Sequence record: OV876907
DNA from: Escherichia phage UGJNEcP3
Strand: one strand, 5' to 3'
Length of the DNA: 64,000 bases
The notes under the pieces were generated by a model, which did no database searches, was not told the origin of the DNA, and saw only the letters and a list, made by a program, of their open reading frames with translations. Both the position numbers and the translations under genes were made by a program. This document shows, one piece after another, positions 820 through 56,309 of this stretch (position 1 is the stretch's first letter; each line of letters opens with the position of its first letter).

Positions 820-2539
820 TCAGAATAGTTTTCGTCGCAATAAACTGATTGAAGAAATGGCTCCTCAGCGTCGTGCTGAGGCGCTAGCCCAAACTCAGAA
901 CGACGAATTAGGAAATATATCAGATGTTTTATCCGATTCCCAGGCGGCGTCTGAATTGCTCTCTGAAGTTGTTGAGACAAAGTCTAACCAGATTATTAAT
1001 TCTGTAAACCGAGTAGACAAAAGCGTCCAAGATGTTGTCGCTGGAACAGAATTAACGGCCGAAGCTATATCAGAACAAACCCAACAGTCTAAAGCTCTTT
1101 CGGATGCATTAAACGAAAAGATTAATAAGCTTTCTAATATGTTGGAGGCTAAATTTTCTGGTATTTCTATTCCACCGGAAGGGGGTTCATTAAAGGTTAT
1201 TGAAGACTCTATTCCGGAAGAACCTAAGGCCGAAACCCCTAAAGTTCCTGCTGTTGTTGAAGATATTCTTCCACCTGAAGATAATAAACCTGACGCTGAA
1301 TTTATGCCTGAGTCTCCTAAAAATTCAGATGAAGGTAAAGAAGGTGATAAGACTTCTCTTTCCGAGAAAATCGAAGCCCTTACTAAAATAACTGAAAAGG
1401 GATTTAAAGCTTCTATAGGCGTCGCTGATAGAATTTCAGGCATGCTTTTTAAGTATACCATTACCGCTGCCGCTGAAGCTGCTAAACTCGCAGCAGGTTT
1501 AGTCCTTTTAATATTTGGTATAGATGCCATTCGCGTATACTTCCAATATTTCATGGACCAATTTGAGTCAGGGTGGAAAGAATTTAACGATAAGTTTAAA
1601 GAGTGGGGACCATTACTTGAAGGGCTAATGACATGGGCCAAGAATGCTGAAGCCATGTTTAGTGAAGGAAACTGGTTAGGTCTGGCTGAAGCTATTATTC
1701 GTGGTATGGTTAATCTTACCAAAAATATGGCACAACTTTTAATGCTTGGTATTTCTAAGTTGATTTCTGCTATTTTAAGCAAAATACCTGGTATGGGTGA
1801 GTTGGCCGAAAACGTAGAGGCTTCCGCCTTAATGTCGTATCAACAAAATACCGGAGCCACTTTGGACGATGAAGACCAAACTAAAGTGGCCAAGTACCAT
1901 GATAGACGTTCAGCCGAGGCTTTAGAAACAGCCGAGAAAATGAATAAGAAGTATAAGGATAAACCTGAGCTTATAAACCAGGCAGAGAAATACGGTAATC
2001 TTACTAAAGAACAAGCCGACCAATTACGCGCCGGTGGAATTGACACAAGCTTCCGTGACCTCCCTGAAGAAGAACGTTTAGAGTATTTCAAGAAACGTGA
2101 TAAAGCTCAGGCTGATATTATTCGTTTGACACAAACCGCTGATAATATAATGAAGCCTGATTCTAAAGATATCGAAAATGCTAAAGCATTTAAAGCTGAT
2201 ATCGAGAAACAATTGGCTGACCCTATTATGGCTAAAGGTGGAGCACCGAAGGACCTTAATATCCAGCAATTACTCGATAAGATGAATAAATCTTTAGAGA
2301 AATTTAATGAAGCTGAAAAGCCTAAACCTGCTTCTGTAGCGGAATCTCCTGAAAATACCCAGGTTAAAAAGGTTGATGAGCAAATGAGAGCAAAGGAAAA
2401 TGCTAAATATAGTCAGCAAGCTCCAACTCAAATAAATCAGCAAACGAATATCAAGAAAACGAGTAAGACAAGCTATAATATGCCTCCACAGTCCTCTACT
2501 CCTGCTCCTGGTATGCGTCAAGCTACTAAAGTTAATTAG
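803..2539 (+). CDS. 29: baseplate hub / tail length determining protein gp29
   Basis: 578 aa ORF with extended Ala/Glu/Lys-rich regions and a central hydrophobic segment; position between 28 and 48; T4 gp29 is of similar size. Confidence 0.7.
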   Translation: MKNESNQNSFRRNKLIEEMAPQRRAEALAQTQNDELGNISDVLSDSQAASELLSEVVETKSNQIINSVNRVDKSVQDVVAGTELTAEAISEQTQQSKALSDALNEKINKLSNMLEAKFSGISIPPEGGSLKVIEDSIPEEPKAETPKVPAVVEDILPPEDNKPDAEFMPESPKNSDEGKEGDKTSLSEKIEALTKITEKGFKASIGVADRISGMLFKYTITAAAEAAKLAAGLVLLIFGIDAIRVYFQYFMDQFESGWKEFNDKFKEWGPLLEGLMTWAKNAEAMFSEGNWLGLAEAIIRGMVNLTKNMAQLLMLGISKLISAILSKIPGMGELAENVEASALMSYQQNTGATLDDEDQTKVAKYHDRRSAEALETAEKMNKKYKDKPELINQAEKYGNLTKEQADQLRAGGIDTSFRDLPEEERLEYFKKRDKAQADIIRLTQTADNIMKPDSKDIENAKAFKADIEKQLADPIMAKGGAPKDLNIQQLLDKMNKSLEKFNEAEKPKPASVAESPENTQVKKVDEQMRAKENAKYSQQAPTQINQQTNIKKTSKTSYNMPPQSSTPAPGMRQATKVN

Positions 2540-4589: not shown

Positions 4590-4597
4590 CAAAAAAA

Positions 4598-4615
4598 GGA
4601 GAGCGTACGCTCTCC
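4598..4615. terminator. bidirectional intrinsic terminator hairpin between convergent genes
   Basis: Perfect palindrome GGAGAGCGTACGCTCTCC flanked by an A7 run upstream and TTT downstream, between the gp54 stop and the stop of minus-strand ORF 4625-4915. Confidence 0.6.
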
Positions 4616-4624
4616 TTTAGGGGT

Positions 4625-4972: not shown

Positions 4973-7096
4973 CTACATTTTGAATTTATTTGATAAAGAA
5001 GAGATATCCAAAGACGCGGCAAGGATTTCCATAGCTTCATTGCTTTCAGAAATGGATTCACTAATCAAGAACTGACTGAATCCATCCATCAGGCGAACTT
5101 CGCCAGTTTCCATCAAATGGTCACCATCGTAAACAGATTCGCTGAGCTCTGAAGGAGGTGTTACGGTAGCTTCCATAAGGTATTTGTGAGATACTCTATC
5201 ATTCATGGCAAAAGACGCTACTTTATCAACCTTCAACAATAATCCACGCGGAAGGATAATTTCTGCTTCTTCAGCATATTCTGTAAGGTCGCCAGGAGCG
5301 ATAACTTTAACTGCTTCAGCACCTCGAATAACCATACCAATTTCAGCAATTCTATCCGCAGGGCCTTCAGGTGCAATTGGATTACCAAACTCGTCTTCTT
5401 CCCATTCCACCTCTTCGTCATCGACTTCACCCACATCAGATGAACTACCACTAGCCAATTTAAACAACTCATCGGCTGAGGATAAAGAACCTTCATCACC
5501 AACAAAAACTGCTTGGTTGTCGAGGGCCATATAATTTTTACCAAATTCGCCAAAGATGTTAGGCTTTAATGAGGCCGACACAAAGTTCTTAAAGTAAAAT
5601 GTTTTGTTATCGATATTATGACGCAGAATTTTGTATGGTAAATCCTGACCACGATACAAAATAGTACCCTTAGGAAGTTTAATACCCTTAGTAAATGCTG
5701 AGTCTAAATCCTTAATCAATTTAATAGCCGTTGTATTGTTTTCGGATTCAGGTTTACCTAAAAGGAATAAGTTCATAGGAGCATATTCAGCTGCGCAATA
5801 TTCAATAATAGCATTGCTTTCGTCTTTGGTTAAGTCCTTAGGTTTAATGAGCTCACCTGAATAAGCATATGCATCACTAATAGAATCGTTAATTAGTTTA
5901 TAAACGGCTTCCATAGCGAAAGCAATTCGAGAGGCCTTTTCTGAAGGGGAGCCTTTAAAACGAGCGCTCAAGTTATTAACAATTTTCTTAATAATATCCA
6001 GACTATTGGTGGTATTGATTTGCGAAAGGCCACTTAAAAGTCTATCGACTTCTGTATTAAAAAATGCCATATTATTAGAGTAAATTTCAAACCCTTGTTT
6101 ATCTCTATTAGCATAATTTAGTTTAAATTTACTATCAGTCATTAAAGCGTGTGTGAGAGCAATAGTGTATCTAAAGTTGGCAAGGTCCTCGCTCTTAGAT
6201 TTAAACTGAGAAGCCTGGCGCATTTTGGTAATAGCACCTTTTTTAAAGTTCTGACTAATCTGTTCAATACCTTCATTCTCAGGGCCTTCAGCCGTGTGAA
6301 CCGGTACAGAAGCTTCAAACTCGTTATAAACCTGCAATTCTTTAGGGGACAAAGTTTCAGGCTCAGCAGTAGAATACTGCGCGGCCGCTGCCATACGACG
6401 CGAAATCTTAGTACGAGTAATGACAGCCTTATCAGTACGTTTCTCTTCAACTTGTGCAATAGATGCCGCTACGGCTTCTACTTTACTTACGGCCTGGCCG
6501 GTTTTCTTAGAAACATACACTTCGCCAACTTTAGACTCGACTTTAGTATAAAGATTGGCATCAATTTCAGGCATACCCTTGATATCTTCAATATTAGCAC
6601 CACGACGTACTAAAAGAACGTAGGTATGTTTTCCGCTGAATTGGAACATGTGGTCAACAACTTTAAACTTACCACCGGTACGGGCCATAGCCAAACGAGC
6701 TAATACGCGCTGAACGGTAGGGCCTTTACCTTTCATTTTCTTAGTAGGGAAACGGAATAAAACCGCGTCCATTTTAAGTTTGTTTATTTGTTCATATATG
6801 GTATCGAAAATGGTGTTCAGTGTACCGAGTGGATCGGTACCCAAACCACCCTTGAGTTCTGCCGGAGCGCCTTTAGCAGATAAACTCATTAAGATAACAT
6901 GGACGTACTTATCGCCATTTTTAACCATCTTAATAGCGTCGCCTTCAGACGCATAAGATACCATACGCGCTACTAAATTGTCATTACCAGGAGCATGTAC
7001 CGCAAAAATCTGCGGTACGCCTGAGCCAGGTTTAAGATTTGTTACCGGATAGTTTTTAGCGGAATCGCTATCAAAAACTTCGTTTAAATTTTCCAT
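4973..7096 (-). CDS. alt: Alt-like ADP-ribosyltransferase paralog 1 (variant catalytic motif, divergent C-terminus)
   Basis: 707 aa. N-terminal ~230 aa nearly identical to the two neighbours. ART region reads FYFKNFVSAS ... EAEIILPRG: Lys where the R-S-EXE class has Arg, and SAS instead of STS. Confidence 0.75.
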   Translation of the reverse strand: MENLNEVFDSDSAKNYPVTNLKPGSGVPQIFAVHAPGNDNLVARMVSYASEGDAIKMVKNGDKYVHVILMSLSAKGAPAELKGGLGTDPLGTLNTIFDTIYEQINKLKMDAVLFRFPTKKMKGKGPTVQRVLARLAMARTGGKFKVVDHMFQFSGKHTYVLLVRRGANIEDIKGMPEIDANLYTKVESKVGEVYVSKKTGQAVSKVEAVAASIAQVEEKRTDKAVITRTKISRRMAAAAQYSTAEPETLSPKELQVYNEFEASVPVHTAEGPENEGIEQISQNFKKGAITKMRQASQFKSKSEDLANFRYTIALTHALMTDSKFKLNYANRDKQGFEIYSNNMAFFNTEVDRLLSGLSQINTTNSLDIIKKIVNNLSARFKGSPSEKASRIAFAMEAVYKLINDSISDAYAYSGELIKPKDLTKDESNAIIEYCAAEYAPMNLFLLGKPESENNTTAIKLIKDLDSAFTKGIKLPKGTILYRGQDLPYKILRHNIDNKTFYFKNFVSASLKPNIFGEFGKNYMALDNQAVFVGDEGSLSSADELFKLASGSSSDVGEVDDEEVEWEEDEFGNPIAPEGPADRIAEIGMVIRGAEAVKVIAPGDLTEYAEEAEIILPRGLLLKVDKVASFAMNDRVSHKYLMEATVTPPSELSESVYDGDHLMETGEVRLMDGFSQFLISESISESNEAMEILAASLDISSLSNKFKM

Positions 7097-7099
7097 TAT

Positions 7100-9148
7100 T
7101 TACCCTTGGGTGAATTTTTCTGGGGTTTCGTCAAAATTAATACATGAAGCTAAAATAGGCATTATATCCACCTTGGTCGATTTGACGAATGAATCAAAAG
7201 ACACACGGTTGTCGGTCTCTGTTTCTACGCCTTGGTAAACAACCAATTCGCCGGTTTCCATCAATGCATCACCATCATAGATAACCGCATTTTCTGCTAG
7301 TTGGTCTGTGGTCTGGATATCAGCTTCCAATAATTTGGTGTTGTAGTTTCCTTTATATGAGGCATCTGTAATTTTAGTAATCTTAACAGTAGTTCCACGT
7401 GGAAGAATAACCTCTTGTTCTGTTGGAGAACCTGACAATTCACCGGGCACAATTACGTTAATAGAGTCTGCACCGGAAATTTTCCAACCGATGTTCATCA
7501 TTGTATTTTCGGAACTCGTCAGCATACTTGGAAGAACAATTTCATTATTGCCTTGGAAAGATGTCCCAGCGCGATAGTCCTGATGAACTGCGGCCATTGC
7601 GACGTTTGATACCCAGCCGCCAAAGATAATCGGCTTAAGGGACGTTGATACATAGTTCCTGAAATAAAACAATTTTGAGTGTTTGATTTTATCAAAAGTG
7701 TTAACATTTAAATATTGACCACGCCAAAGTGTAATATCAGGTGGCAATTTATGGCCAATTTCAAATGCCGCATCCATATCATTAATTACTTCAATTACAC
7801 GATAACTATCAATAAATTCTGCATCCTCTTCATAATAATTACCCAACAAATAATTATTAACATCGGTATAATATTGGCCACAATAAGAAGAAATAGCCTC
7901 ACGCTGCCCATACTCAAATCGATTATCGCTATAACTGGCTGTAAAATGCATAACACTTTCTGACGCTTCATTAGCAAAGTCGGTAACAGCAGCACTTATA
8001 CGTTGAGCATACTCTTGTTCCCAAAGCTCTGCTGCATATTCTGCCGCATCCATATTAGGAGGAGCCTCATTCATTTTTCTTTCGATAAATGCAGCTTTGC
8101 GAAGGTTAAGAACCTCTGCACATGATTCGGCAAAAATCTGCATCTGCTTCATACTGCCGACAGGAGCACGTTTAAGTTCACGATGCATACGGTTAAAAAT
8201 TGGGTCAGAGTCTTCGACTCGAATTTCTTCTTTCCAAACACCGTTTGCTCGCATAGCCATATCTGCCGCGCGCATACGCTCCATAGTATTCGTTTCAGAA
8301 GGCTGAATAAAAATTTCCAGTTCTTCATAATCATCGATAAGTTCTGCTGTTGCTGGGGCACTAAATTTTGATGCCTCTGCATCAATCTCATTCCAACCTT
8401 CCGGAACTTCATCTCGAGGAGAATACTGGGCTGCGGCTACAGCACGCCTAGAAATCTTGGTAGTAGTAATAACGGCCTTATCCGTACGTTTTTCTTCGAC
8501 TGCCGCTATACTAGCAGATAGTGCTTCTATTTTGGTTACCGATTGGCCTGTTTTCTTGGATACATAAACCTCACCAACTTTAGACTCAACCTTAGTGTAA
8601 AGGTCTGCATCAATTTCAGGCATACCTTTTATGTCCTCAATATTAGCTTGTTTACGGACCAGTAAAACGTATGTATGTTTGCCTGTAAATTGATACATAT
8701 CATCGACAACTTTAAACTTGCCGCCAGTACGAGCCATCGCCAAACGTGCCAATACACGTTGAACAGTAGGACCCTTACCTTTCATTTTCTTGGTAGGGAA
8801 CCGGAAAAGAACTGCATCCATTTTAAGTTTGTTTACTTGTTCGTATACAGTATCAAAAATGGTATTCAGCGTACCAAGTGGGTCAGAACCTAACCCACCT
8901 TTCAACTCGGCTGGGCTACCCTTAGCAGACAAACTCATCAAAATAACATGAACATATTTGTCACCCGGCTTAACCATTTTAATAGCGTCTCCTTGAGACG
9001 CATAAGATACCATACGAGCAACCAGATTATCATTACCTGGTGCTTGGATAGAGAAAATCTGTGGAATACCGGGACCCGGTTTAAGATTTGTTACTGGATA
9101 GTTTTTAGCGGAATCACTATCAAAAACCTCATTTAAATTTTCCATCAT
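7100..9148 (-). CDS. alt: Alt-like ADP-ribosyltransferase paralog 2
   Basis: 682 aa. R-S-EXE signature FYFRNYVSTS ... EQEVILPRG; C-terminal tail ends PEKFTQG like T4 Alt; start 3 nt after the paralog 3 stop. Confidence 0.8.
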   Translation of the reverse strand: MMENLNEVFDSDSAKNYPVTNLKPGPGIPQIFSIQAPGNDNLVARMVSYASQGDAIKMVKPGDKYVHVILMSLSAKGSPAELKGGLGSDPLGTLNTIFDTVYEQVNKLKMDAVLFRFPTKKMKGKGPTVQRVLARLAMARTGGKFKVVDDMYQFTGKHTYVLLVRKQANIEDIKGMPEIDADLYTKVESKVGEVYVSKKTGQSVTKIEALSASIAAVEEKRTDKAVITTTKISRRAVAAAQYSPRDEVPEGWNEIDAEASKFSAPATAELIDDYEELEIFIQPSETNTMERMRAADMAMRANGVWKEEIRVEDSDPIFNRMHRELKRAPVGSMKQMQIFAESCAEVLNLRKAAFIERKMNEAPPNMDAAEYAAELWEQEYAQRISAAVTDFANEASESVMHFTASYSDNRFEYGQREAISSYCGQYYTDVNNYLLGNYYEEDAEFIDSYRVIEVINDMDAAFEIGHKLPPDITLWRGQYLNVNTFDKIKHSKLFYFRNYVSTSLKPIIFGGWVSNVAMAAVHQDYRAGTSFQGNNEIVLPSMLTSSENTMMNIGWKISGADSINVIVPGELSGSPTEQEVILPRGTTVKITKITDASYKGNYNTKLLEADIQTTDQLAENAVIYDGDALMETGELVVYQGVETETDNRVSFDSFVKSTKVDIMPILASCINFDETPEKFTQG

Positions 9149-11236
9149 TTACCCTTGGATGAATTTTTCTGGGATGCCATAGAGGTCTATGCATGAAGCC
9201 AAAAGAGACAGTACATCAACCCGTGTAGATTTAACAAATGAATCAAAAGATACAGGGCTTTCGGAAGTATCGAAATCATCTTGATATACGACCAACTCAC
9301 CGGTTTCCATTAGTACGTCACCATCATATACCACAGATTCTTGAAGCTCATCTGATGTCATAACTTCAGCTTGAATAAATTTATTGTTAGACACCGTCCC
9401 GGAACCAGTATTGGCTGATGCATCCACGATTTTATCTATTTTTACAAGTAGCCCGCGTGGTAAAATTATTTCCTTTTCGTTGGCATGCATGCTTAATTGG
9501 CCAGGATAAATCACGTTAACCTTATGAGCGCCACTAATAGCCCAGCCAACATCAACACGGATTTGATCCGGCGCATACATATGTGTACGCACTTGACTAT
9601 CAGAGATGGTAACGCCTTCGTCATTATTATCAATGTTTAATTCTTTTCGAACATCATCGGAAGCAAGACCAATAGCCGCATTCTCTTTAAAGCCACCAAA
9701 AATGATTGGAGCTAATGAGGTTGAAACATAGTTTCTAAAATAGAATACCTTATTTTTAACTAATGCTTCGTAGATAGGCGCGCGCAAAGATTGTGCTCTA
9801 TAAACCATTATTCCTTCAGGTAAACGGTCTCCATTTTTAAAGGCAGAATCCATTCCATCAATAGCACGTTTAACTTCGCTTTCGTCCAAAACTTCATAAA
9901 AGCCTGGTTTATAACGACCAAGAAGGACATTGTTAATATCAATATAAGCTGAAGAGGCGTATTCTCTGATAGCTCGTTTTTCTGCAAGTGTATATTGTTT
10001 AGGGTCTCGAGATGTTGTTATATTAAGAATTTCTCTAGTTGATTCTATAGCGTATGTATACATTATCTTAGACAAGAATGAAGACTTACGTTGTTTCCAT
10101 ACTATTTCACTGTTTTCATTCAATATCTCTTTTTCCAAATGGAAATTGTCTTTTCTATAATCTTCAAACCAATCACTTTTAATAGATTCTGCGATTTCAT
10201 TAGCAACTTCAACAAAGGCAGCTAAAGCTTTAACTGACGTGGTTTTTTCATTTTTAATTTTTTTGACAAATGTTTCTAAAGAAGAGTTAATTTTATCACC
10301 GTAAGAAACTTCATCCGCAAATTTAAATGAATCATCCATAGTATTATAAATTTTAAAATCAATAGCCGTAGCCAACTTATCCTTAGCTGTTTCAGATGAT
10401 AACGATAGTTCAACTTCGGCCGCTTGTGGAATTAATTCTGCCGTAGCAGGCGCACTGAACTCACTAGCAGTTTGCTCGTATTTCTGAAACAATTCACCTT
10501 CATTACGATCTGATTCTAATGACTGGCTTGCTGCAATAGCACGTCGCGAAATCTTAGTCTTGGTTATAACCATTTTATCGGTGCGACGTTCTTCAACCTT
10601 AGCAATACTGCCGGCAATAGCAGTTTCTTTAGTAACCTGCAGGCCTTCTTTTTTAGAAATATAAACTTCACCAACATCAGAATCTACCTTAGTGTATAAT
10701 TCGGAATTAATTCCTGGCATACCCTTAATATCTTCAATGTTAGCTTGTTTACGAACTACTAGGATGTAAGTATGTTTACCGGTAAATTGGTACATAGCCG
10801 GAACTACTTTAAAACGTCCACCTGTTTTCTGTGCTACCAAACGTTGGATAATCCGTTGAACAATAGGCCCTTGACCTTTCATTTTCTTAGTAGGGAAACG
10901 GAACATCACTGCATCCATACGAAGCTTTTTAACTTGGTCATAAACCACATCAAAAATAGTATTAATCGCATCTACGGGAGTAGGGCCAAGGCCACCCTTA
11001 AGTTCGGCTGGAGTACCTTTAGCTGAAAGGCTCATAAGGATAACGTGGGCATATTTATCGCCTAATTTAACTTGTTTAATAGCATCACCTTCAGAAGCGT
11101 AGGATACCATACGCGCTACTAATTGGGATTCTGCATCGCCAATCTTCCAAATCTGAGGTACTTTAAGTTTTGGGTTCAAGTTTACTGTAGGCAGAGTGCC
11201 TTCGGACTCAAACACTTCATTTAATTGTTCGGTCAT
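9149..11236 (-). CDS. alt: Alt ADP-ribosyltransferase (copy most similar to T4 Alt)
   Basis: 695 aa. FYFRNYVSTS ... EKEIILPRG ... PEKFIQG; central region recalls T4 Alt more closely than the other two copies. Confidence 0.8.
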   Translation of the reverse strand: MTEQLNEVFESEGTLPTVNLNPKLKVPQIWKIGDAESQLVARMVSYASEGDAIKQVKLGDKYAHVILMSLSAKGTPAELKGGLGPTPVDAINTIFDVVYDQVKKLRMDAVMFRFPTKKMKGQGPIVQRIIQRLVAQKTGGRFKVVPAMYQFTGKHTYILVVRKQANIEDIKGMPGINSELYTKVDSDVGEVYISKKEGLQVTKETAIAGSIAKVEERRTDKMVITKTKISRRAIAASQSLESDRNEGELFQKYEQTASEFSAPATAELIPQAAEVELSLSSETAKDKLATAIDFKIYNTMDDSFKFADEVSYGDKINSSLETFVKKIKNEKTTSVKALAAFVEVANEIAESIKSDWFEDYRKDNFHLEKEILNENSEIVWKQRKSSFLSKIMYTYAIESTREILNITTSRDPKQYTLAEKRAIREYASSAYIDINNVLLGRYKPGFYEVLDESEVKRAIDGMDSAFKNGDRLPEGIMVYRAQSLRAPIYEALVKNKVFYFRNYVSTSLAPIIFGGFKENAAIGLASDDVRKELNIDNNDEGVTISDSQVRTHMYAPDQIRVDVGWAISGAHKVNVIYPGQLSMHANEKEIILPRGLLVKIDKIVDASANTGSGTVSNNKFIQAEVMTSDELQESVVYDGDVLMETGELVVYQDDFDTSESPVSFDSFVKSTRVDVLSLLASCIDLYGIPEKFIQG

Positions 11237-14556: not shown

Positions 14557-14751
14557 TTATCCTCGACGGAGCATTTTAATTAATGAAAGCTCTTCAGCCA
14601 TACGTACATCTTCAGTACCATCTACCCATAAAACTGCATAGGCTTCTTTAATTACTTTACCGTTAATTTTAAAAGCAGGTAACACCTTAGAAATCATTCC
14701 TGGGATACCTATACCTTTTAGCTGAACGGTTTGAGATAAGAATAAATGCAT
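14557..14751 (-). CDS. hypothetical protein
   Basis: 64 aa ORF in the early gene string. Confidence 0.35.
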   Translation of the reverse strand: MHLFLSQTVQLKGIGIPGMISKVLPAFKINGKVIKEAYAVLWVDGTEDVRMAEELSLIKMLRRG

Positions 14752-15038
14752 TAGAACCTCATCTGAAATCCATGTGATTTAACATTACCACCGTAGATGT
14801 CAGAAGTATTGACTTCGCGGGCAGCGCTAGGGTCGATATTAATATCATGGTTGAGCTTAGTGATTGCTAGGGTGTCACGACCATTAACTGTACGGAATTC
14901 TACCGGACAAACCACATCAGCATAAGCCTTAATGGATTCGCGAGTAGGCTGTTTGTCAGCAGGAACATCTTTACCTGCCTTAGAGAAAACAACTTCACAG
15001 AAATTTTTACGAGTATCGAAATAAGTGGTCATAAACAT
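14751..15038 (-). CDS. hypothetical protein (start re-set to the ATG with GAGGAAAATATT context)
   Basis: Track ORF extends to 15071 through the hairpin; the ATG at 15038 has a canonical RBS. Confidence 0.45.
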   Translation of the reverse strand: MFMTTYFDTRKNFCEVVFSKAGKDVPADKQPTRESIKAYADVVCPVEFRTVNGRDTLAITKLNHDINIDPSAAREVNTSDIYGGNVKSHGFQMRF

Positions 15039-15053
15039 AATATTTTCCTCAAT

Positions 15054-15069
15054 GGAGGCCGAAGCCTCC
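15054..15069 (-). promoter_or_regulatory. GGAGGCUUCGGCCUCC hairpin immediately upstream of an RBS
   Basis: 16 nt perfect palindrome with UUCG loop, then AUU, GAGGAAAAUAUU, AUG. An identical copy is at 52433-52448. Confidence 0.5.
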
Positions 15070-15079
15070 ATTTTTAAGA

Positions 15080-15851: not shown

Positions 15852-15949
15852 TTTATTCTCCGGTTTGTTTTCGTATTATTTGGTACATGTCTATAGTATC
15901 ATGCCTACCGGAGATGTACACCCTTTTTTTAAGATTTAGAAACAAAAAT

Positions 15950-15967
15950 GGGACTCCGAAGAGTCCC
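15950..15967 (-). terminator. C(UUCG)G hairpin with U-run
   Basis: Minus strand GGGACUC-UUCG-GAGUCCC followed by AUUUUUGUUUCU, just after the stop of small ORF 15973-16134. Confidence 0.5.
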
Positions 15968-15972
15968 ATAAC

Positions 15973-31144: not shown

Positions 31145-31196
31145 CATTAAATACCAAAAAGGGAAGACCGAAGTCTTCCCATTATAAATCAATAAC

Positions 31197-38512: not shown

Positions 38513-39637
38513 ATGGAAAGATTTATGGCAGAATTTGGACAAGGATATGTCCAGGTTCCTACATTATCTGAAAACAATGCTGTAAGGTACAAACTTAGTA
38601 TAGCTGGTAGTTGTACTAAGTCTACCACAAAAGCATATGTTAAATTTCAAGATGGGGACTTCGGTCCCCAGAATTTTCAAAATGGATTAAATCTTATAGA
38701 AATAGACGTTAGTGCCGAACCTAAAGTGGTGGCTAACAAAACTTATAGTTTTACAAAAGATTTTGATGTTATCTCTGAAGCTTTTATTACTTACATAAAT
38801 TCAATACCTGCAAACAGAATAGTTTGTTTAGTATCTTCTGGTAGATTAAACGCTTCACAGAAACTTATTGATTGGTTCCGTGCAGCAGGAAGTACAGCAT
38901 TCCCGTCTAAATGGATGATAGAGCGATTTGAGCCGTCTTATTCGGCCTTTTACGTTTCTGGTAGAAATACCATAGTGATGGAACACGTCCTTTATAATGA
39001 TGGGGTGTTTGTTGAAGATGTTTCTACACCATTAGAAGTCGTTTTTGACGATATCAGTGATGTCGGCGGTACCGGATATCCTATAAGAATAGTAGAAGAT
39101 GAAAATACTTATCTAAGTAATGGTGGGGAGGAAATAAAACGTTTCCCTACGGATTCTCCTACCACTCCTTGTGCTGATTATAATATGAAGCCTGGGGAGT
39201 TCTTTTATCTTAAATTCCAAATGATGTGCGACCAGGAATTAAAAGATTCAGAAGGGACTTCTCAAATGTCTGTTAGATTTTTTGATTCTAATAGTGCTTT
39301 GACCGGTACTGTAAATATGGAAATCCCGACTAATTTCCCTGCCGGGTCTTGGATGACTTTTGAGCGAGTAATTGAAGTTCCTGCTAATACAGAAACATTT
39401 ACATTGTATGCAAGAAAAACAGTGGCCAGTGGAGGTGGTGGTGTACGCAATGTGATGTTTGGGGAAGTATCAGAGCCGGAATCACAACCTAAATCAGCTG
39501 AATTTGGTGTAAATGGTATTCGTATGAATTTCGGTACCGAAACTAAGAATATGGGTATTACTATAGCCCAGTTATACGATAAAACAGGTACTAAACCGGG
39601 GCAGGTTTGGGTATCTGAATTTAGAGAAAAATATTAA
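38513..39637 (+). CDS. 35: long tail fibre hinge gp35
   Basis: 374 aa, synteny 34-35-36-37. Confidence 0.75.
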   Translation: MERFMAEFGQGYVQVPTLSENNAVRYKLSIAGSCTKSTTKAYVKFQDGDFGPQNFQNGLNLIEIDVSAEPKVVANKTYSFTKDFDVISEAFITYINSIPANRIVCLVSSGRLNASQKLIDWFRAAGSTAFPSKWMIERFEPSYSAFYVSGRNTIVMEHVLYNDGVFVEDVSTPLEVVFDDISDVGGTGYPIRIVEDENTYLSNGGEEIKRFPTDSPTTPCADYNMKPGEFFYLKFQMMCDQELKDSEGTSQMSVRFFDSNSALTGTVNMEIPTNFPAGSWMTFERVIEVPANTETFTLYARKTVASGGGGVRNVMFGEVSEPESQPKSAEFGVNGIRMNFGTETKNMGITIAQLYDKTGTKPGQVWVSEFREKY

Positions 39638-39660
39638 GGAACCTTCGGGTTCCTTTTTCG
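39638..39660 (+). terminator. C(UUCG)G hairpin terminator after gene 35
   Basis: GGAACC-UUCG-GGUUCC followed by UUUUUCG. Confidence 0.6.
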
Positions 39661-43647: not shown

Positions 43648-43651
43648 GAAA

Positions 43652-43665
43652 GGGCCTTCGGGCCC
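43652..43665 (+). promoter_or_regulatory. C(UUCG)G hairpin between genes 37 and 38, directly upstream of the gene 38 RBS
   Basis: GGGCC-UUCG-GGCCC followed by UGGAGGUUUUU and the gene 38 ATG. Confidence 0.45.
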
Positions 43666-43676
43666 TGGAGGTTTTT

Positions 43677-44472: not shown

Positions 44473-44480
44473 TATAAATA
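44473..44480 (+). promoter_or_regulatory. late promoter TATAAATA for holin gene t
   Basis: Exact TATAAATA about 19 nt upstream of the t ATG, with AGGAG RBS between. Confidence 0.6.
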
Positions 44481-47537: not shown

Positions 47538-47560
47538 ACTTTTTCACTAAACCCAAAAAA

Positions 47561-47576
47561 GGAACCCGAAGGTTCC
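47561..47576 (-). terminator. C(UUCG)G hairpin terminator
   Basis: Minus strand GGAACC-UUCG-GGUUCC followed by UUUUUUGGGUUU. Confidence 0.6.
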
Positions 47577-47681
47577 TTACTTTTTAAAGTGAGCTGCTAT
47601 TAAACCTATAGCTAGGCCTGTGGCCAGGCCTAGGATAATAGCAAAGATACAGAGTAACAAGAACTCGACTCCAAGGCTCAT
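47577..47681 (-). CDS. small hydrophobic peptide, 34 aa (absent from ORF track)
   Basis: ATG overlaps the gene 52 stop (ATGA); sequence MSLGVEFLLLCIFAIILGLATGLAIGLIAAHFKK is a single predicted transmembrane helix. Confidence 0.4.
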   Translation of the reverse strand: MSLGVEFLLLCIFAIILGLATGLAIGLIAAHFKK

Positions 47682-49356: not shown

Positions 49357-49443
49357 ATTTTCCTCATTAGCGTCCGAAGACGCCTTTAGTTTTAAGATTG
49401 TTACGATAGAACTGCATCACATGCTCGTTATGGAAATTACTCA

Positions 49444-51355: not shown

Positions 51356-51431
51356 AATATTTTCCTCTCGTGTAGTTGATAGGAAGATAGTAACACCATC
51401 CATGGCGTATGTAAACACTTATTTTAAAAAA

Positions 51432-51950
51432 TTATAAGGCGAGATACCAGCCGTTGTAATTGCTCTTACGGACTAGCTTTGTGATGGCTTCTCTGTCGCC
51501 AGAGAACTTAGGAGTGAACAGGACGTCGCCTGCCTCATTTACTGAAGTGTCGAATATAATTATACAGTCTGCAACTTTATGATTCAAGAGCGGTCCCAGG
51601 TTAATCCCTGTTCCATAAGGGAAGTCACCGGAGTATCCTGTAGTACAGGAAATCCACTTAGAATCTGATTGATGGGTCTTGACCTCTACACGTAGTCCAC
51701 AATACATAGGATGAGCTAAAACATCCCATGCATAGGTATAAGGGTCGTCATGGTCTTCCAGACCACTGTTAACATATCCTTTCAACCAATCAGCCACCAT
51801 ATACTCGGCATACGTTGCAATGACACACCGAGTCAATACTTCTTTCTTATCTTGGGACGGGTCTTGGCTTAAGGAATACAGTACGGTATCCTTAATCTTA
51901 ACCTTCATTTCGCCTGTTAAATCAGATGTCTTCAGGGTAAATGTCGGCAT
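51432..51950 (-). CDS. hypothetical protein (possible DenB-region gene by synteny; start uncertain)
   Basis: Track ORF of 193 aa overlaps the upstream gene; internal ATG at 51950. Lies between rIIB and ndd where T4 has denB; identity not confirmed. Confidence 0.3.
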   Translation of the reverse strand: MPTFTLKTSDLTGEMKVKIKDTVLYSLSQDPSQDKKEVLTRCVIATYAEYMVADWLKGYVNSGLEDHDDPYTYAWDVLAHPMYCGLRVEVKTHQSDSKWISCTTGYSGDFPYGTGINLGPLLNHKVADCIIIFDTSVNEAGDVLFTPKFSGDREAITKLVRKSNYNGWYLAL

Positions 51951-52420: not shown

Positions 52421-52432
52421 AATTTCCTCTTA

Positions 52433-52448
52433 GGAGGCCGAAGCCTCC
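52433..52448 (-). promoter_or_regulatory. GGAGGCUUCGGCCUCC hairpin immediately upstream of an RBS
   Basis: Identical 16 nt palindrome to 15054-15069; 10 nt after the rIIB stop and 3 nt before GAGGAAAUU-AUG. Confidence 0.5.
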
Positions 52449-56236: not shown

Positions 56237-56292
56237 ATTCTCACCTCTTAGAGAATCGTATCATACTTTTAATCAGTTGTAAACCCCGAAAA

Positions 56293-56306
56293 GGGCCTTG
56301 CGGCCC
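56293..56306 (-). terminator. GNRA-loop hairpin terminator
   Basis: Minus strand GGGCC-GCAA-GGCCC followed by UUUUCGGGGUUU. Confidence 0.5.
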
Positions 56307-56309
56307 TTA

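Follow-up and report, generated by a model that had tools for sequence, protein, structure and literature searches.

The two intercistronic hairpins described here are of a known kind: they belong to the C(UUCG)G hairpin family of phage T4 and represent no new type of element. Both lie on the gene-sense strand of a JS98-like phage, shortly after the stop codon of one gene and just upstream of the ribosome binding site (RBS) of the next, and both are devoid of the U-tract that defines an intrinsic terminator. Among the explanations weighed below, we prefer one in which the hairpins do not terminate transcription and would instead block 3' exonucleases, thereby protecting the upstream cistron (selective RNA processing and stabilisation). 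We hold this to be possible, falling just short of probable, and regard the stability reading as reasonable but unproven. T4-like phages carry approximately 270 genes in long polycistronic transcripts, and the differing outputs of neighboring genes are partly understood; the hairpins offer a concrete and testable case in which, within a model phage family, hairpins may give neighboring mRNAs different stabilities.

Two copies of a UUCG hairpin at intercistronic junctions

The window is the stretch of 64,000 nt from Escherichia phage UGJNEcP3 (OV876907) that was analyzed. Genome-wide counts were made on the full 170.6-kb genome of Escherichia phage UGJNEcP4 (OV877765.1), which is 100% identical to the window and represents a JS98-like Dhakavirus of the T4 family. 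Two exact copies of a 16-mer (GGAGGCUUCGGCCUCC / GGAGGCTTCGGCCTCC) are present in the window, at 15054-15069 and 52433-52448, both on the minus strand and both palindromes with a UUCG loop, as the initial annotation had reported. Allowing up to 2 mismatches, no further match to GGAGGCTTCGGCCTCC was seen in the window, and 100 dinucleotide-preserving shuffles yielded 0 matches to the 16-mer. The search for more copies elsewhere in the genome, which the initial annotation had suggested, returned the same two exact copies only, and it revealed a family of 19 UUCG hairpins to which they belong. Two other hairpins of the genome are one compensated base pair away from the 16-mer (GGAGAC-UUCG-GUCUCC).

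Both copies are on the gene-sense strand. By JS98 and T4 annotation, the first (site 1) occupies the 30.7/30.6 junction and the second (site 2) the rIIB/denB.1 junction (Table 1). A longer ORF of the 30.6 region, listed from position 15071, begins within the hairpin and was discarded as spurious. The order of elements in the sense direction is UAA, 7 nt, the hairpin with a 9-bp stem, GAGGAAA, AUAUU and AUG at site 1, and UAA, 10 nt, GGAGGC-UUCG-GCCUCC, UAA, GAGGAAA, UU and AUG at site 2, within intergenic regions of 41 and 38 nt, respectively. This bears out the layout that had been described from the 16-mer, i.e., a hairpin soon after the stop codon, followed by 3 nt, GAGGAAA and an AUG on the minus strand, without a U-run. 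The predicted stability is -14.4 kcal/mol at site 1 (z = -5.1) and -10.8 kcal/mol at site 2, and the 8 nt past the stem contain 0 and 1 U, respectively.

A promoter scan made no call between the stop codon and the AUG at either site; the closest promoter-like site for site 1 is upstream of 30.7. A terminator scan likewise made no call on the sense strand at either site. An Rfam search of the whole window at the gathering threshold gave 0 matches, and a tRNA scan found none.

Table 1. Coordinates of the two hairpins, their flanking genes and other UUCG hairpins of the window.
Feature	Position	Strand	Remarks
Site 1 hairpin, AAUGGAGGC-UUCG-GCCUCCAUU, 9-bp stem	15051..15072	-	16-mer core 15054-15069; between 30.7-like and 30.6-like genes
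Site 1 upstream cistron, gp30.7 homologue, 121 aa	15080..15445	-	TAA 15082-15080, 7 nt before the extended stem; JS98/T4 annotation
Site 1 Shine-Dalgarno GAGGAAA of the 30.6-like gene	15044..15050	-	Abuts the 9-bp stem; invariant in an alignment of 12 relatives
Site 1 downstream cistron, gp30.6 homologue, 95 aa	14751..15038	-	AUG 15038-15036
Site 2 hairpin, GGAGGC-UUCG-GCCUCC	52433..52448	-	Between rIIB and the denB.1-like gene
Site 2 upstream cistron, rIIB, 343 aa	52459..53490	-	TAA 52461-52459, 10 nt before the hairpin
Site 2 Shine-Dalgarno GAGGAAA of the denB.1-like gene	52423..52429	-	3 nt past the hairpin
Site 2 downstream cistron, denB.1 homologue, 65 aa	52223..52420	-	AUG 52420-52418
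Low-U member, GCGUC-UUCG-GACGC, then UAAU, GAGGAAAAU, AUG	49370..49383	-	3' of the ndd-like gene; -9.3 kcal/mol
Low-U member on the late strand, AGGGCC-UUCG-GGCCCU, then GGAGGUUUUU, AUG	43651..43666	+	Between gp37-like and gp38-like tail-fibre genes
Terminator-class member, AUGGGACUC-UUCG-GAGUCCCAU and UUUUGUUU, then -35-like GTGTAC	15948..15969	-	After the 30.9-like gene
Terminator-class member, AAGGAACC-UUCG-GGUUCCUU and UUUUGGGUUU, then GTTTAC	47559..47578	-	Identical to the hairpin at 39636-39655 (+)
Terminator-class member, GGGAAGAC-UUCG-GUCUUCCC and UUUUUGG, then GTTTAC	31161..31180	-	

In every feature tested, the pair resembles the C(UUCG)G hairpins reportedly described by Tuerk et al. 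in 1988 from between the cistrons of phage T4: the UUCG loop is closed by a C-G pair, the stem is GC-rich and unusually stable, and the location is intercistronic on the sense strand. Hairpins with a UUCG or UUCA loop also occupy the two homologous junctions of T4 itself. Nothing essential separates the two focal hairpins from those of T4; they come from another genus, Dhakavirus, and their stems differ by compensated changes.

Conservation of the junction hairpins in the Straboviridae

A hairpin is retained at the 30.7/30.6 junction in five genera of the Straboviridae and at the rIIB junction in seven lineages. The stem at the 30.7/30.6 junction reads GGAGGC-UUCG in the JS98-like phages and one further contig, GGGGC with a GAAA loop in three contigs, AGGGGC-UUCG and AGGGGC-UUUG in T4-like metagenomic contigs and phage DalCa, AGGGGC-UUCA in T4, and UGGGAGC-UUCG in Mosigvirus; in the Erwinia Winklervirus it has decayed to AGGG-CUUCGU-CCUU. 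All of these hairpins are 0-5 nt before the RBS, and none has a U-run. A profile search for additional gp30.6 loci in IMG/VR added none to the 14 already collected.

Variants of the rIIB hairpin have the stems GGAGGC, GGGGC, GGGGAC, AGGAGCC and AGGGAC. The Dhakavirus form is GGAGGC, with a UCCG loop in one variant, that of Gaprivervirus is GGGGC, and T4 has a short (A)AGGC-UUCG-GCC(C)UU. The homologous hairpin is followed by a clear U-run in Mosigvirus, Jiaodavirus, Bragavirus and Acinetobacter phage Ac42 (UUUUUUCUUU, CUUUUAUUAU, UUUUUGGUUU, GUUUUAAUUU), so that the rIIB junction displays both a terminator and a U-less state.

In a set of 18 variants, pooled from the two junctions and centered on the loop by hand, and thus read as evidence at the level of the family, compensatory changes were found in 6 of 7 stem pairs, and the covariation score was reached by 0 of 500 shuffles. 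These comparisons indicate that it is the structure that is selected, not the sequence, and that selection acts on the sense RNA. The U-less hairpin of the 30.7/30.6 junction, with compensatory stem changes, is present in Dhaka-, Gapriver-, Tequatro- and Mosigvirus, while true terminators in those same genomes keep 5-7 U. As the U-less state has been kept across genera, the site 1 hairpin is therefore not a decaying terminator, and the hairpin alone is under selection.

Two classes of UUCG hairpins in the genome

To place the two sites among their relatives, perfect tetraloop hairpins with GC-rich stems were listed across the whole genome; 19 of them have a UUCG loop. The UUCG was on the local coding strand in all 19 of these GC-rich hairpins (P = 4e-6, after one strand assignment of the crude gene map had been corrected), and nearly all are intergenic. 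Consistent with this, CTTCGG occurs 19 times in the sense and once in the antisense orientation within intergenic DNA, which makes up 6.4% of the genome. The 5' arms of the family consist almost entirely of purines and end in C.

We divided the family according to the number of U residues in the 8 nt past the stem, i.e., at least 5 versus at most 4. In the U-rich class (5-7 U, n = 9), an early -35-like motif (GTTTAC or GTGTAC) follows within 14-26 nt in 5 cases, and an RBS with a start codon is nearby in none. In the U-poor class (0-4 U, n = 10), the promoter motif is found in none, whereas an RBS and start codon are present within 9-23 nt in 7. The contrast between the classes gave P = 0.003 for the RBS and start codon and P = 0.011 for the promoter motif (Fisher). 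The two focal hairpins have the lowest U content of all 19. Thus, a single genome holds U-run UUCG hairpins at the borders of transcription units and U-poor ones directly before promoter-less genes. This split, together with the transition from a terminator to a U-less hairpin at the rIIB junction, is the most useful by-product of the analysis.

By its sequence features, the U-rich class matches the PeSL terminator/promoter cassettes of T4-like phages, in which an early promoter is combined with a stem-loop (Arbiol 2010, PMC2839356; Comeau 2014, PMC4122927). The focal hairpins share with PeSL stem-loops a G-rich/C-rich composition, an intergenic location and the RBS and start of the next gene at the 3' edge, as well as nearby breakpoints of indels or gene replacements (here in AnYang, L004, Mosigvirus and Winklervirus). 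However, the PeSL promoter feature TTTACW-N17-TAYWAT is absent from the focal sites and present at other hairpins of the window (GTTTAC); the focal hairpins correspond to the stem-loop module alone, within an operon and without promoter or U-run.

The identity of the two focal copies is unremarkable and is expected from the small sequence space of the family. It needs no special explanation, because identical stems are common in the family (AAGGAGC, GGGAGAC and AAGGGC, and also AAGGAACC-UUCG-GGUUCCUU at 39636 (+) and 47559 (-)) and because GAGGAAA-N(2-8)-ATG occurs 30 times in the genome. An origin of the two copies by duplication or from a mobile element was rejected, since their identity ends at the 16-mer and the RBS motif that they share is the one found 30 times genome-wide. 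Nor do the identical stems argue for gene conversion: 5-6 identical stem pairs were seen among the 19 members versus 2.9-5.5 expected from position-specific composition, and the excess was not significant (P = 0.17-0.43).

A possible read-through decay barrier

Intercistronic decay barriers are known from the REP elements in malE-malF and from the Rhodobacter puf hairpins. In the E. coli host, a genome-wide map and reporter operons have shown that, after RNase E cuts between genes, PNPase degrades the RNA back to a stable stem-loop, whose free energy determines the upstream gene's abundance (PMC10667835). The two phage hairpins resemble these E. coli elements in being stable stem-loops 3' of a cistron within a polycistronic unit, with an A/U-rich single-stranded stretch downstream; they differ in that there is no sequence homology and the processing steps in the phage are proposed ones.

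We considered each hairpin as a 3' appendage of its upstream gene, and from its structure, strand specificity, conservation, absence of a U-tract and upstream linkage we infer read-through, cleavage and exonuclease block in the following sequence. A sense-strand C(UUCG)G hairpin of the T4 type would lie within a polycistronic early transcript, and E. coli RNA polymerase, meeting no U-tract, would read through it, so that the promoter-less genes from 30.6 onward, and denB.1 and denB, could be transcribed. Later, an endonuclease would cut within the A/U-rich initiation region 3' of the hairpin and free a 3' end, which exonucleases would trim back. These enzymes would then stall at the hairpin, and the 30.7 or rIIB RNA would outlive the RNA downstream.

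As to the first of these steps, the downstream genes need read-through, because only 3 nt and the RBS separate the 16-mer from the start codon, a stretch too short to hold a promoter. E. coli RNA polymerase requires a proximal U-tract for intrinsic termination, and efficient termination is therefore not expected at either site. For the second step, the RNase E cleavage motif RN↓WUU, known from TIER-seq work, has a match between the RBS and AUG at both sites (AU↓AUU at site 1 and AA↓AUU at site 2); such matches are weak evidence, because these motifs are common in AT-rich RNA. A literature search for transcript 5' or 3' ends (Term-seq, cappable-seq and RNase E maps) of this phage or of the T4 equivalents returned nothing usable.

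A somewhat unlikely alternative, although the strongest of those considered, is that the hairpins are weak intrinsic terminators or attenuators, at which some polymerases stop, or pause and release, without a U-tract, so that the genes downstream would be transcribed less than 30.7 and rIIB. Like intrinsic terminators, the hairpins are GC-rich and soon follow a stop codon. In the records of phages ATK48 and DalCa, these hairpins bear the label 'rho-independent terminator', which was assigned from structure alone, and the rIIB homologues in Mosig-, Jiaoda- and Bragavirus and in Ac42 have a real U-run. Furthermore, the stem-loop from a PeSL cassette of the RB49 type by itself cut expression of a downstream lacZ reporter as strongly as rrnB T1 (PMC2839356), so attenuation by such stems has to be taken seriously. 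In T4, rIIB RNA was classed as early and denB.1 and denB as middle (PMC9697503 supplement, which gives temporal classes only); this early/middle split fits the barrier and partial termination equally well. Against attenuation, the defining U-tract is missing (0 of 8 and 1 of 8 positions, the fewest of the 19 hairpins), which conflicts with the established requirement of E. coli RNA polymerase. Moreover, the terminator scan was silent on the sense strand, site 1 has remained U-less in four genera whose true terminators have not, and T4 genes 30.4-30.8 share one temporal class (PMC9697503).

Taken together, the lack of a sense U-run and of a sense-strand terminator call, the need for read-through, the persistence of the U-less hairpin in four genera and the linkage to the upstream gene lend indirect support to the view of the initial annotation that these are stability or processing elements and not simple terminators; the GGAG-directed cleavage that it had offered as one form of processing did not hold (see below). 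In practice, hairpins of this type should not automatically be labeled rho-independent terminators, the label that they carry in two GenBank records.

Association of the hairpin with the upstream or the downstream gene

The comparison of relatives ties the hairpin to the upstream gene, with which it is inherited. In seven lineages, the rIIB hairpin starts 1-13 nt past the stop codon, and the next AUG is found at 12 to ~70 nt. A spacing of 13 nt between stop and stem, common to both sites, had been considered as a special feature and was dropped in view of this 1 to 13 nt span among orthologues. Mosigvirus and Winklervirus retain 30.7, the hairpin and the RBS before an unrelated downstream gene. 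In phage AnYang, 30.8, 30.7 and the hairpin have been lost together, and 30.6 is left with its RBS only, behind a promoter. Across the 14 loci, the hairpin type tracks nucleotide identity in 30.7 (at least 87.7% for all GGAGGC types and at most 86% for the others), not in 30.6. A counter-example is locus L004, in which 30.7 has been lost and a weakened hairpin of 4 bp is kept next to 30.6, behind an early promoter; this locus would fit a function on behalf of the downstream gene just as well. Taken by itself, linkage is a weak argument, since no more than 7-16 nt separate the hairpin from the gene on either side.

These data also bear on a second alternative, in which the hairpin serves the downstream gene: once the A/U-rich spacer on its 5' side had been cut, it would form a 5'-terminal stem-loop that shields the 30.6 or denB.1 mRNA from 5'-end-dependent RNase E, or else it would insulate the RBS from base pairing with the coding RNA upstream. 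5' stem-loops are known to stabilize E. coli mRNAs, the ompA 5' UTR being one example, and in synthetic insulators a hairpin is positioned immediately before the RBS. The spacing of 0-5 nt between hairpin and RBS in all Dhaka-, Gapriver-, Tequatro- and Mosigvirus examples agrees with it, as does L004, in which the hairpin is 5'-proximal behind the early promoter in the absence of 30.7. Nevertheless, we consider this role unlikely. The 30.6 gene of AnYang has no hairpin and the L004 copy is reduced to 4 bp; the rIIB hairpin is always close to the stop codon but at a variable distance from the next start; and the hairpin type follows the upstream gene. Partition-function calculations of the accessibility of the initiation region gave values of 0.44, 0.50 and 0.54 with the hairpin versus 0.51, 0.64 and 0.47 when it was deleted. 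Because the hairpin had no consistent effect on accessibility, the role as an RBS insulator was rejected.

Other explanations of the hairpins

A more elaborate hypothesis holds that U-less UUCG hairpins constitute a distinct programmed class, as opposed to degenerate terminators, by which T4-like phages would set different lifetimes for cistrons that adjoin in a single transcript, with matching stems arising not by chance but by co-evolution with a trans-acting factor that reads their sequence or by intragenomic conversion. Stems do match at both junctions, as GGAGGC in the JS98-like phages and one further contig and as GGGGC in the group of three contigs. Nonetheless, we consider this hypothesis very unlikely, as one coincidence in a small sequence space adequately explains the match of stems within a genome, and the hairpin type follows the 30.7 phylogeny.

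It is more improbable still that the palindromes terminate antisense transcription on the plus strand, which past the palindrome reads AUUUUUAAG at site 1 and GUUUAUUGAUUU at site 2. Terminator-like calls were made on the plus strand at 52433 and 49370, and a late-promoter motif at 44473 (+) could send transcripts to site 2. However, site 1 has no call on that strand and no plus-strand late promoter TATAAATA upstream, and a strong bidirectional terminator (4595-4618) lies in between. The A/T-rich stretch past a stop codon provides T-rich antisense sequence for free, and the stable loop (UUCG/GAAA) is always in the gene-sense orientation (19/19), leaving the plus strand with its complement (CGAA/UUUC).

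Finally, cleavage by RegB at the GGAG was rejected as hardly conceivable, in light of published data from T4 and because the orthologous stems GGGGC and AGGGGC contain no GGAG, although the focal stems begin with GGAGG in an intergenic region of early mRNA, as RegB targets do, and the genome encodes a RegB-like endoribonuclease. RegB requires single-stranded GGAGRAYARAA (PMC1702504), whereas the GGAG of the 5' arm is paired in a stem of -10.8 to -14.4 kcal/mol and is followed by GCUUCGG; in T4, 16 intergenic GGAGs in stable stem-loops, often with UUCG, are among 42 that are poorly cut or RegB-resistant (Durand 2006, PMC1702504; PMC3014915), and the RBS contains GGAA, which is very poorly cut (PMC1702504).

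Three observations had been overlooked in the initial annotation, i.e., that the hairpins are part of a genome-wide family known from T4, that they carry a terminator annotation in two relatives, and that the rIIB hairpin is homologous to terminators composed of a hairpin and a U-run.

Hairpins at gene junctions and sites of recombination

In relatives of the phage, genes have been deleted (30.8-30.7) or the gene downstream exchanged for another, and the breakpoints of these changes fall at or next to the block formed by the hairpin and the ribosome-binding site; the junction thus behaves as a recombination boundary. The mechanical ORF list gives the 30.6-like gene as 14751-15071 (-), opening at an ATG within the hairpin (15071); this ATG is not the real start, which is the AUG at 15038, after the ribosome-binding site.

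In T4, the homologous hairpin of the rIIB/denB.1 junction lies at NC_000866 167,938-167,964 (2439-2465 of the T4 locus), with denB.1 and denB just downstream. Published T4 omics classes place rIIB RNA as 'early' and denB.1 and denB as 'middle', and the T4 junction is a kinetic discontinuity between these classes.

Arm polarity and distribution of the UUCG hairpins

The 5' arms of all UUCG hairpins are purine almost throughout and Shine-Dalgarno-like (GGAGG, AAGGAG, GGGAG), and the 3' arms are anti-Shine-Dalgarno-like, as seen at 15051-15072, 43651-43666 and 47559-47578. A second identical pair is also present (Table), each copy followed by a U-run on its own local sense strand, and several further pairs with identical stems occur elsewhere in the genome. 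The sense-strand UUCG hairpin at 38653-38670 (+) is intragenic, lying within a late tail-fibre coding sequence (record CDS 157626..158738), not intergenic.

Four minus-strand hairpins with a U-run and a nearby GTTTAC or GTGTAC resemble the PeSL (stem-loop plus early promoter) cassettes of T4-like phages, in which a terminator is combined with an early promoter.

Table. Hairpins of the window and breakpoint loci of relatives
Sequence	Position	Strand	Feature
Window	4595-4618		AAAGGAGAGC-GUAC-GCUCUCCUUU, 10-bp palindrome; T-rich on either side
Window	15948-15969	-	U-run, then GTTTAC or GTGTAC in 14-26 nt
Window	31161-31180	-	U-run, then GTTTAC or GTGTAC in 14-26 nt
Window	38653-38670	+	UGGGGAC-UUCG-GUCCCCA
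Window	39636-39655	+	AAGGAACC-UUCG-GGUUCCUU
Window	47559-47578	-	AAGGAACC-UUCG-GGUUCCUU; U-run, then GTTTAC or GTGTAC in 14-26 nt
Window	56291-56308	-	Loop GCAA; U-run, GTTTAC or GTGTAC only a few nt on
L031 (AnYang)	960-1540		Breakpoint
L004	1360-1510		Breakpoint
L032, L033, L040	junctions		Breakpoint

Other features of the window

The palindrome at 4595-4618 stands where late (+) and early (-) genes converge, and is probably a bidirectional terminator. Three Alt-like RNA polymerase ADP-ribosyltransferase genes lie in tandem at ~4973-11236 (-), whereas the T4 stretch compared holds one full alt gene and two short fragments. At ~51360-51500 the window spans the join between the two termini of the linear record as deposited. 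Compared with an end-to-start concatenation of that record it skips 127 nt, suggesting that the assembly has overlapping ends.
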